Shown piece after piece: positions 1,771-32,707 of a stretch of 64,000 bases of DNA; position 1 is the first letter of the stretch, and each line of letters opens with the position of its first letter. Source of the stretch: Escherichia coli (lineage in GTDB: Bacteria > Pseudomonadota > Gammaproteobacteria > Enterobacterales > Enterobacteriaceae); NCBI RefSeq assembly GCF_003018255.1, contig NZ_CP027440.1; one strand, written 5' to 3'. Both the position numbers and the translations under genes were made by a program. The notes beneath the pieces are model-generated. The model worked only from the letters and a program-made list of their open reading frames with translations. It was not told the DNA's origin and ran no database searches.

Positions 1771-1914
1771 TCAGGCTACGCAAGGCTTTGGAGAATAAAG
1801 AGCTTGCAACCGGAAACGGATTTCTTTTCAGGTTTGTGATGCAAATTTTTCACTTCATCACATTCTTTCTGAAAAACACCAAAGAACCATTTACATTGCA
1901 GGGCTATTTTTTAT

Positions 1915-1937
1915 AAGATGCATTTGAGATACATCAA
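1915..1937 (+). promoter_or_regulatory. NsrR operator overlapping the hmp promoter (AAGATGCATTTGAGATACATCAA)
   Basis: Sequence matches the described hmp NsrR site; lies 28-50 bp upstream of the hmp ATG. Confidence 0.6.
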
Positions 1938-1964
1938 TTAAGATGCAAAAAAAAGGAAGACCAT

Positions 1965-3155
1965 ATGCTTGACGCTCAAACCATCGCTACAGTAAAAGCC
2001 ACCATCCCTTTACTGGTGGAAACGGGACCAAAGTTAACCGCCCATTTCTACGACCGTATGTTTACTCATAACCCAGAACTCAAAGAAATTTTTAACATGA
2101 GTAACCAGCGCAATGGCGATCAACGTGAAGCCCTGTTTAACGCTATTGCCGCCTACGCCAGTAATATTGAAAACCTGCCTGCGCTGCTGCCAGCGGTAGA
2201 AAAAATCGCGCAGAAGCACACCAGCTTCCAGATCAAACCGGAACAGTACAACATTGTCGGTGAACACCTGTTGGCGACGCTGGACGAAATGTTCAGCCCG
2301 GGCCAGGAAGTGCTGGACGCGTGGGGTAAAGCCTATGGCGTACTGGCTAATGTATTTATCAATCGCGAGGCGGAAATCTATAACGAAAACGCCAGCAAAG
2401 CCGGTGGCTGGGAAGGTACTCGCGATTTCCGCATTGTGGCTAAAACACCGCGCAGCGCGCTTATCACCAGCTTCGAACTGGAGCCGGTCGACGGTGGCGC
2501 AGTGGCAGAATACCGTCCGGGGCAATATCTCGGCGTCTGGCTGAAGCCGGAAGGTTTCCCGCATCAGGAAATTCGTCAGTACTCTTTGACTCGCAAACCG
2601 GATGGCAAAGGCTATCGTATTGCGGTGAAACGCGAAGAGGGTGGGCAGGTATCCAACTGGCTGCACAATCACGCCAATGTTGGCGATGTCGTGAAACTGG
2701 TCGCTCCAGCAGGTGATTTTTTTATGGCTGTCGCAGATGACACACCAGTGACGTTAATCTCTGCCGGTGTCGGTCAAACGCCAATGCTGGCAATGCTCGA
2801 CACACTGGCAAAAGCAGGCCACACAGCACAAGTGAACTGGTTCCATGCGGCAGAAAATGGCGATGTTCACGCCTTTGCTGATGAAGTTAAGGAACTGGGG
2901 CTGTCACTGCCGCGCTTTACCGCGCACACCTGGTATCGTCAGCCGAGCGAAGCCGATCGCGCTAAAGGTCAGTTTGATAGCGAAGGTCTGATGGATTTGA
3001 GCAAACTGGAAGGTGCGTTCAGCGATCCGACAATGCAGTTCTATCTCTGCGGCCCGGTTGGCTTCATGCAGTTTGCCGCGAAACAGTTAGTGGATCTGGG
3101 CGTGAAGCAGGAAAACATTCATTACGAATGCTTTGGCCCGCATAAGGTGCTGTGA
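1965..3155 (+). CDS. hmp: Flavohaemoglobin / nitric oxide dioxygenase
   Basis: 396-aa ORF with N-terminal globin domain and C-terminal FAD/NAD-binding reductase domain. Confidence 0.95.
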
Positions 3156-21454: not shown

Positions 21455-23254
<1,800 letters not shown>

Positions 23255-23451
23255 AAAGTATGATTATTGTGCCTTAATGCCCGGTTAACCAGGCTTTTAG
23301 AAGTCGCTGTTCTGAGCTTAACGTCTGTATTAATAGAAACGCCGCATTCTACACTACAACATTGAGGCGAGGAAATGTTCATACCGTATGGATTGTGGTA
23401 TCTGGAAACGTCCTCGCATTTGTTATGCAAAATGCAACAAAGCCAGTGAAA

Positions 23452-23931
23452 TCACTGGCTCGCGTCTTCCGAAGATGTTTCAAATCGCACAAGGCCAGGC
23501 GGCAAGGCCACGCTTAAGATGATCGGTTGCCATTCAGACCGGGCAGCAAACTTTCGAGAGCAGCCACGTGCAATCAGGAATCCACCAACGCCACCGAGAA
23601 TCGCACCGCATAATGCTGCAATATCTGAAGCAAAGAGTAGCTGAAATAGTGAAGCGATGAGGAATAGTCCCACCAACGGCGACATATAAACCAGTAATGC
23701 GGAGCTAAGCAGGCTGCCTTCGGCGATTCCTAATTCTACTTTTTGCCCCGGCACTAACGGCTCATCACAGGGTACGACAATGGTATGCGTGGTTTGCGGG
23801 CCAAGTTTATTCAACACGCGGCTACCGCAACCGGCACGTGAAGCGCAGCTGCTGCATGAGGCTTTAACATCACAACTAACCAGCGCCTGCCCGTTTTCCC
23901 AGGAGACGACGGTAGCCCACTCTTTGATCAT
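23452..23931 (-). CDS. rseC: SoxR-reducing system protein RseC
   Basis: 159-aa membrane protein, last gene of the rpoE operon. Confidence 0.9.
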   Translation of the reverse strand: MIKEWATVVSWENGQALVSCDVKASCSSCASRAGCGSRVLNKLGPQTTHTIVVPCDEPLVPGQKVELGIAEGSLLSSALLVYMSPLVGLFLIASLFQLLFASDIAALCGAILGGVGGFLIARGCSRKFAARSEWQPIILSVALPPGLVRFETSSEDASQ

Positions 23932-32019: not shown

Positions 32020-32403
32020 TTACAGGCTTTCAGTAAAGGTACGAGCAATAACGTCGCGCTGCTGTTCCGGAGTCAGAGAGTTAAAGCGAACTGCATAACC
32101 GGATACACGGATGGTCAGCTGCGGATATTTTTCCGGATGCTTAACTGCATCTTCCAGAGTTTCACGACGCAGAACGTTTACGTTCAGATGTTGACCACCT
32201 TCAACGCGAACTTCTGGTTTCACTTCTACTGGAACTTCACGGTACTCAATGTCACCCAGTTTGCTTACTGCAACCACTTCGTCTTCTGCAAAACCTGCTT
32301 TCGCAACGATGCAACGCGCTTCGCCTTTTTCGCTGTCCAGCAGCCAGAAAGAGTTCAGCAGATCGTCGTTAGCGGCTTTAGTAATCTGGATACCTGTAAT
32401 CAT
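32020..32403 (-). CDS. grcA: Autonomous glycyl radical cofactor
   Basis: 127-aa product ending in the PFL-like glycyl-radical motif RVSGYAV. Confidence 0.95.
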
Positions 32404-32510
32404 GTGATGCCTCCCCGGCAAAATTATTTGATTTGTTCAGCCTGTCGCGGCCAATTGGTAAAACCATTGTTGCTTGAGTGTATATATACTCCTCAAACAC
32501 CCTTGAATCT

Positions 32511-32524
32511 TTGATTTAAATCAA
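32511..32524 (-). promoter_or_regulatory. FNR/CRP-type box TTGAT-N4-ATCAA upstream of grcA
   Basis: Perfect FNR consensus half-sites with a TATATA -10-like element between box and gene. Confidence 0.55.
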
Positions 32525-32707
32525 TAAAAACCACACATCAAGTATGGTTGCAAATGGATTTTATTGTTTTACATCAACTTATGCAGGTGTGAAATTTTAC
32601 CAATTTACATTTTTTTGCACTCGTTTAAGTCTAAAAAATGAGCATGATTTTGTTCTGTAGAAAGAAGCAGTTAAGCTAGGCGGATTGAAGATTCGCGGGA
32701 GAGCGAG

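Follow-up and report, generated by a model that had tools for sequence, protein, structure and literature searches.

Enteric bacteria rely chiefly on Hmp to remove nitric oxide under aerobic conditions. In the absence of nitric oxide, excess Hmp is harmful because it generates superoxide, and tight repression of hmp therefore matters for the fitness of the bacteria within the host. The repressor NsrR is a member of the Rrf2 family, and its operators in E. coli and Salmonella, known from hmp, ytfE, ygbA and hcp, are 11-1-11 inverted repeats of the general form AAGATGCATTT-n-AAATGCATCTT. In the ScNsrR–DNA structure (PMC9338935), base contacts are made at positions ±4, 5, 6, 9, 10 and 11, and the central bases are not key determinants. 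The literature records that NsrR occupies the E. coli hmp region and that the E. coli protein makes use of single half-sites. According to papers that cite Partridge 2009, one 11-bp motif can be enough for an NsrR site in this species. Tandem arrangements have also been described: pairs of NsrR sites exactly 25 bp apart are listed for hmp of Vibrio vulnificus (−80/−55) and V. parahaemolyticus (−64/−39), and the pair in front of Photobacterium nnrS (−74/−49) has the same spacing (Rodionov PMC1274295, Table S2). The hmp promoter, its NsrR operator and its FNR site are already known. The present analysis concerns a 9-nt word, TAAGATGCA, that occurs twice at this locus, once overlapping the left half of the operator (copy 1) and once downstream of it (copy 2), where it is already tabulated as a weak candidate motif. 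From the sequence, copy 2 may be a weak auxiliary NsrR contact in the register of the tandem operators, a reading that we put forward tentatively and consider to fall somewhat short of probable.

The glyA–hmp control region

The window, that is, the whole stretch of E. coli DNA that was analysed (64,000 nucleotides), carries glyA on the minus strand (383–1642 in the ORF list of the window) and hmp (hmpA) on the plus strand (1965–3155), the latter being a 396-aa ORF for the NO-inducible flavohaemoglobin, annotated as hmpA in 5,425 E. coli genomes. The intergenic region between the two genes (about 322–331 bp) is 100% identical to that of many E. coli chromosomes. Moreover, it is found in single copy, beside the gene annotated hmpA (NO-inducible flavohaemoprotein), in 5,425 of 5,426 complete E. 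coli genomes, and the locus is therefore the well-studied E. coli glyA–hmp control region. Consistent with this, a previous sequence-only reading had taken it for the hmp promoter with its NsrR operator.

The two copies of TAAGATGCA lie on the plus strand at 1914–1922 and 1939–1947, and no third copy exists on either strand of the 64-kb window. The geometry proposed by the sequence-only reading proved accurate: the copies are spaced 25 bp start to start, 17 bp separate the end of copy 2 (1947) from the hmp ATG (1965), and the copies face different sides of the helix, 25 bp corresponding to 2.38 turns, or about 137 degrees. By itself, a repeated 9-mer is unremarkable. Exact local direct repeats of at least 9 nt, 9–40 bp apart, number 21 in the window against about 7 in first-order Markov simulations; such a repeat arises in 7% of simulated 322-bp intergenic regions of the same composition, and two or more copies of TAAGATGCA appear in 8 of 100 whole-window shuffles. 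What raises this case above an ordinary repeat is that, of the functional elements present, the repeated word is the most strongly conserved. A tandem duplication of the promoter segment was considered as the source of the repeat and rejected, as only 3 of 16 positions match between the 25-bp units outside the 9-mer.

Several related arrangements were observed in passing. In E. coli MS14384 (NZ_LR130562.1, positions 61–175 of the locus extracted from it), a 29-bp tandem duplication, TTTGAGATACATCAATTAAGATGCAAAAA, lies in the hmp leader and gives rise to three copies of TAAGATGCA and a pair of FNR-like sites; the duplication may exist in the strain or may be an error of assembly. In a Buttiauxella metagenome-assembled genome, about 70 bp upstream of hmp, TATAAGATGCATTAAAAGATGCATATTAAATGCATC contains the −10/half-site word, followed 12 bp on by a second AAGATGCAT that starts a complete NsrR palindrome, so that the same word has been independently duplicated in another genus. 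In the window itself, GATGCAAA is also present at 1838–1845, some 90 bp before the start, within the block TTTGTGATGCAAATTTTTCAC, which is conserved in E. coli, Salmonella and Klebsiella (Rodionov alignment) and is possibly a site for MetR or another factor.

Promoter, transcription start and leader

A promoter scan paired the −35 hexamer TTTACA (1890–1895, plus strand), which is 100% conserved in the 74 non-Escherichia loci described below, with TAAGAT (1914–1919, −13 to −8) across an 18-bp spacer. TAAGAT forms the first part of copy 1, which also overlaps positions 1–8 of the left NsrR half-site. The hexamer in copy 1 has the properties expected of a sigma-70 −10 element, namely, the pattern TAnnnT, a location 16–18 bp after a −35-like hexamer and a distance of about 7 nt from the start. 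The hmp transcription start has been mapped experimentally to the A given in parentheses in GCATTTG(A)GATACA (Rodionov et al. 2005, PMC1274295, Fig. S3), which corresponds to position 1927 on the plus strand of the window. Since the start is A1927, copy 2 falls at +13 to +21, within the transcript. The suggestion of the sequence-only reading that copy 2 might belong to the −10/start region can thus be dismissed: the −10 hexamer sits in copy 1, and copy 2 is part of the 5′ UTR. Copy 2 was also tried as the −10 of a second promoter, and this candidate was discarded, the possible −35 elements matching at only 0–2 of 6 positions at spacers of 16–19 bp. Downstream of copy 2, a run of eight adenines (A8; 1947–1954, +21 to +28), the length of which varies between strains, leads to the hmp Shine-Dalgarno sequence GGAAG (1955–1959, +29 to +33), located 5 nt before the ATG.

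The NsrR operator and the nested FNR-like site

For scoring of half-sites, we rebuilt an 11-mer matrix from 25–27 ChIP-seq-supported E. coli sites (Mehta 2015 Table 4), with hmp either left out or included. The hmp operator is a 23-bp element (11-1-11), AAGATGCATTT-G-AGATACATCAA, at 1915–1937 (−12 to +11, plus strand). It scores 20.8–25.2 bits, ranks first among all full-site PWM matches in the window, and is the published hmp NsrR site, listed in both Rodionov 2005 (PMC1274295) Table S2 and Mehta 2015 Table 4. Its left half-site, AAGATGCATTT (1915–1925), matches the half-site consensus at 11 of 11 positions and, with 15.6–15.8 bits, is the unique best 11-mer of the window. The right half (1927–1937) scores only 3.1–5.1 bits, with a frequency of 3–8e-3 among window positions. 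The sequence-only reading had described the two copies as bracketing the NsrR site, and here it has to be corrected: copy 1 makes up most of the left half-site, and copy 2 begins 2 bp past the end of the operator.

Nested in the right part of the operator is an FNR-like site, TTGAGATACATCAA (1924–1937, −3 to +11, plus strand), which agrees with the consensus TTGAT-N4-ATCAA at 9 of 10 specified positions and, with this one mismatch, is a candidate FNR site by sequence. An FNR site is marked in hmp by Rodionov 2005 (PMC1274295), where it is conserved in E. coli and Salmonella only. The E. coli right half (TTGATGTATCT on the reverse strand of 1927–1937) is the weakest of 79 Enterobacteriaceae loci, scoring 3.1 bits compared with a median of 11.7; it is weak because the same bases serve as the FNR site. 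FNR control in the Escherichia lineage seems to have been gained at the expense of operator quality.

Copy 1 carries two jobs, its TAAGAT being the sigma-70 −10 and AAGATGCATTT the strong left half of the NsrR operator. As the operator spans −12 to +11, an NsrR dimer bound there in its [4Fe-4S] form occludes RNA polymerase until nitric oxide abolishes DNA binding.

Some other matches in the window deserve mention. On the NsrR half-site matrix, the 11-mer AAGAACCATTT at 1882–1892, which overlaps the −35, equals copy 2 with 7.7 bits; its high conservation is most likely due to the −35 and upstream promoter contacts and not to NsrR. The second-best full NsrR-matrix match, CTCGCATTTGTTATGCAAA (23413–23431, about 11 bits), lies in the gap between two minus-strand ORFs (21455–23254 and 23452–23931); it is an imperfect palindrome that probably arose by chance. 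A perfect FNR consensus, TTGATTTAAATCAA (32511–32524), and a one-mismatch site (32564–32577) are found 53 bp apart upstream of a minus-strand ORF (32020–32421), the product of which reads as GrcA/YfiD. This arrangement agrees with the tandem FNR sites for which the yfiD promoter is known.

Copy 2 as a half-site-like sequence

Copy 2 forms the core of an orphan half-site-like 11-mer, AAGATGCAAAA (1940–1950), which matches the half-site motif AAnATGCATTT at 8 of 11 positions, positions 1–8 being exact. With the ChIP-derived matrix it scores 7.5–7.7 bits, a level reached at a frequency of 8e-4, that is, in the top 0.08% of window positions, which reproduces the PatSer ln P of −7.08 given for this motif by Mehta et al. 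2015. The right half of the operator itself scores lower. Where the motif has its inner TTT, copy 2 reads AAA, at a cost of about 3.3 bits. The core GATGCA (positions 3–8) is in the top 0.06% even when judged against the A-rich composition of the leader. Copy 2 fares less well with a 9-mer matrix derived from the gamma-proteobacterial sites of Rodionov, reaching only 5.3–5.4 bits, or one position in about 700. Furthermore, two additional 11-mers of at least 7.7 bits occur in the AT-rich intergenic region, making three with copy 2. The ScNsrR contacts correspond to motif positions 1–3 and 6–8, all of which are kept in copy 2; by homology, copy 2 may therefore offer the same contacts, with the qualification that the contacting residues of EcNsrR differ.

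In the published record, Table 2 of Mehta et al. 2015 gives AAGATGCAAAA as hmp (19), with a PatSer score of 5.00 and an ln P of −7.08, as a weak 'possible NsrR site', next to hmp (44), AAGATGCATTT, with 10.92 and −15.25. An NsrR ChIP-seq peak covers glyA–hmp with 3.8-fold enrichment, its summit displaced towards hmp by 84 bp relative to the centre of the operator (Mehta 2015). At this enrichment the offset of the summit is not informative, and sites 25 bp apart are beyond the resolution of the method. Moreover, the full operator 2 bp away explains the peak alone, so that the peak gives copy 2 no independent support for occupancy. A search of the published literature for footprints or mutants of copy 2 turned up none.

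An inverted partner for copy 2, sought 12 bp downstream, is absent: 1952–1962 (reverse complement GGTCTTCCTTT) scores −11 bits, with a frequency of 0.4, and the register in which a partner would have to lie shifts with the A7/A8 polymorphism. A second full NsrR palindrome at 1942–1960 was likewise tried and rejected, with a 19-mer score of −2 to −3 bits. The proposal of the sequence-only reading that copy 2 is an additional NsrR half-site is reasonable: positions 1–8 of the motif are kept, the ChIP-derived matrix gives 7.5–7.7 bits and the motif is listed by Mehta et al. 2015. Copy 2 is at most a candidate, however, as the partner half is missing and genera other than Escherichia lack the exact word.

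Conservation of the leader and of the 25-bp register

The 110 bp upstream of the start of hmp were aligned for 80 Enterobacteriaceae loci, of which 74 are non-Escherichia. In these 74, the mean identity to the window is 98% for copy 1, 74% for the right half and 93% for the Shine-Dalgarno sequence, as opposed to 39% for copy 2, and G1945 of copy 2 is absent from all of them. Exact copy 2 is confined, among the aligned loci, to Escherichia, namely, E. coli, E. whittamii and Escherichia sp. E1V33. Escherichia sp. MOD1-EC7003 has TTAGATGCA at this place, and one cryptic-clade Escherichia locus (L002) has TTAGAT instead of TAAGAT with GATGCA retained, a variant shared by no E. coli strain in a search of E. 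coli genomes. The 80-locus set does not include E. albertii and E. fergusonii, so that the age of copy 2 is bounded by the cryptic-clade Escherichia and E. whittamii only. Some Citrobacter of the amalonaticus/sedlakii type have CATCATTAAAGATTCA where E. coli has CATCAATTAAGATGCA, the two being equal in length and differing by three substitutions. Klebsiella hmp has no GATGCA core and yet has a predicted NsrR site (Rodionov PMC1274295).

Within E. coli, copy 2 is invariant among the strains sampled and aligned. An 82-mer from this region is found at 95% identity or more in 5,418 of 5,426 E. coli genomes and is identical in 1,414 of these 5,418. The invariance of copy 2 is weak evidence because diversity is low everywhere. 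The length of the adjacent A-run does vary: it is A8 here, A7 in K-12, EDL933 and E69, A6 in PCN033 and A5 in cryptic-clade Escherichia.

Copy 2 points the same way as the operator's left half and follows it by 25 bp. The plus-strand 11-mer in this register (j=2) scores at least 7 bits in 20% of 69 unique Enterobacteriaceae leaders, compared with 0–3% in other registers and 0.3% in composition-matched random sequence. Similarly, this register exceeds the 97.5th percentile of the background in 20–30% of the 69 leaders and other registers do so in 0–4%. The signal persists when the leader's own composition is used as background and the outer AA positions are removed. Its carriers are Escherichia, many Citrobacter (AAGATTCACAT, AAGTTTCAGAT, AAGATTCATAA and others) and a few Enterobacter and Leclercia. 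With the Rodionov 9-mer matrix, by contrast, a downstream half-site as good as copy 2 is found in only 3 of the 74 non-Escherichia loci; the register signal is thereby erased and hence depends on the matrix. Across 79 loci, the score of the right half is negatively correlated with the best downstream half-site score (Spearman −0.37), which fits compensation. Because these loci share ancestry, common descent without selection could account for the enrichment and for the correlation alike.

Possible functions of copy 2

Taken as an auxiliary contact, copy 2 would be a third, unpaired half-site-like sequence at which a second NsrR dimer could sit beside the first, as in tandem operators. One subunit of this second dimer would make specific contacts with AAGATGCA, and the other would lie non-specifically over the A-run and the Shine-Dalgarno sequence, so that repression might be modestly strengthened or extended. 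We infer both the binding of copy 2 and its consequence from the motif and its register. The variable length of the A-run argues against this reading, as it implies that the sequence to the right of copy 2 is unconstrained, and so does Salmonella hmp, which is repressed by NsrR without a GATGCA core. In a more elaborate version, a second NsrR dimer docks on copy 2 as a functional third half-site, in the 25-bp register of Vibrio, and this half-site arose or was kept in the Escherichia/Citrobacter lineage to compensate for the remodelling of the operator's right half into an FNR site. We consider this version unlikely; if it were true, nitric-oxide sensing by NsrR and oxygen sensing by FNR would be combined in a single short DNA segment, with tight repression kept at the low NsrR level of the cell.

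Alternatively, the match in copy 2 could be accidental, specific to one lineage and without any part in regulation, an explanation that we rate almost as high as the auxiliary contact and, like it, short of probable. An ancestral A/T-rich leader resembling CATCATTAAAGATTCA could have drifted to CATCAATTAAGATGCA in Escherichia by about three substitutions, one of which (ATCAT to ATCAA) would have improved the FNR half-site; the equal length of the Citrobacter and E. coli sequences, three positions apart, agrees with such a path. Chance is also favoured by the restriction of the exact 9-mer to Escherichia and its low identity elsewhere relative to copy 1, by the commonness of local 9-mer repeats in the window, by the three matches of at least 7.7 bits within 322 bp of intergenic sequence, by the lack of a partner half-site and by the free polymorphism of the adjoining A-run. 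Chance less readily accounts for a register-specific signal shared by Escherichia, Citrobacter and some Enterobacter leaders despite their differing sequences, for a register equal to that of the Vibrio tandem operators, or for the rarity of the GATGCA core against leader composition; the invariance of copy 2 in the sampled E. coli points the same way, weakly given the low diversity of the whole region. Two other explanations place the function of copy 2 in transcription elongation or in RNA. According to the first of these, TAAGAT of copy 2 (+13 to +18) would be re-bound on the non-template strand by retained sigma-70, causing a pause 10–15 nt further on and slower escape into hmp. Sigma-70 pause elements, such as those of lambda PR′ and lac and the G1d class (Sun et al. 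2021), are indeed −10-like hexamers on the non-template strand of the initially transcribed region, and promoter-proximal pausing of this kind is widespread in E. coli (PMC7876045). The hexamer in copy 2 fits TAnnnT and is identical to the promoter's own working −10. In addition, a TAnnnT starting at +10 to +22 is present in 42 of 79 orthologous leaders, compared with about 20 expected from shuffles, and 31 of these 42 have it at +12 (TAAAGT or TAAAAT); this count, however, ignores phylogeny, and the leader is A/T-rich. Pausing is nevertheless very unlikely. Canonical −10-like regions lie a conserved 11 bp after the promoter −10 and give pauses at +16–20 (PMC7876045), whereas the offset of copy 2 is 25 bp, and copy 2 is thus no pause element of the canonical geometry. 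Moreover, the TTAGAT of the cryptic-clade locus has lost the critical A at position 2 and kept GATGCA. The accessible part of the supplementary pause lists of PMC7876045 has neither hmp nor glyA, and no pause is on record for hmp, although the absence of hmp says little because hmp is repressed without nitric oxide.

A function of copy 2 in RNA, as an upstream AUG (a uORF or an N-terminal extension), as a target of SdsN137 or as part of a leader structure, we regard as highly improbable. Copy 2 is transcribed and contains an AUG (1943–1945), and SdsN137 is reported to repress HmpA synthesis. The repeat as such cannot act in RNA, copy 1 being upstream of the transcription start. In the A8 allele, AUG1943 opens an out-of-frame uORF of nine codons (MQKKGRPYA and a stop; 1943–1972) that ends over the hmp start, and in A7 strains such as K-12 the same AUG is in frame with hmp, seven codons upstream (MQKKEDH-M...). 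The frame flips with the A-run polymorphism, and therefore no reading frame is conserved; besides, the upstream AUG has no Shine-Dalgarno sequence, unlike the annotated start with its conserved GGAAG. The leader is essentially unstructured: the sole helix predicted is a 4-bp CAUC/GAUG stem, with an MFE of −5.2 kcal/mol and z = +0.56, and leader structure was rejected as a candidate. Pairing of SdsN137 to copy 2 is not supported, as the best windowed duplex predictions fall on 1955–1983 (the Shine-Dalgarno sequence and early codons). An Rfam search of the region returned nothing relevant, its only hit being a chance mir-67 match (E = 0.57) elsewhere in the region.

Comparison with known NsrR systems

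If copy 2 does contribute as an auxiliary contact, the locus would be a clear case of E. coli NsrR using an orphan half-site beside a full operator and would illustrate how FNR can be given a share in the second half of an operator at tolerable cost. If copy 2 plays no part, the textbook picture of promoter, operator and FNR site is unchanged. Either outcome would be a small refinement of a well-studied promoter.

Compared with the E. coli and Salmonella NsrR operators, 1915–1937 is the published hmp operator, and it covers the −10 and +1, as expected of a polymerase-blocking repressor such as NsrR. It differs from the other operators of this group in that its right half is unusually poor in E. 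coli and doubles as an FNR site, and copy 2 and the sequence downstream of it form no second inverted repeat. The single half-site targets described by Partridge et al. 2009, by Mehta et al. 2015 and, for LEE5, by Branchu et al. 2014 may be kin to copy 2. Its PatSer score is within the range of other single motifs listed by Mehta 2015 (3.7–9.4). Unlike these stand-alone targets, copy 2 sits 2 bp from a full operator. A further comparison is with the tandem operators of Vibrio hmp and Photobacterium nnrS. The second element in Vibrio is a full 19-bp palindrome, scoring 5.1–5.4 on Rodionov's scale, whereas E. coli has the left half of such an element only, the remainder being the A-run and the Shine-Dalgarno sequence. 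Nevertheless, the upstream Vibrio site, GATaCATTTgAgATaCAaC, is very similar to the E. coli GATGCATTTGAGATACATC, and the 25-bp start-to-start distance of the tandem sites is equal to that from the left half to copy 2 in E. coli.
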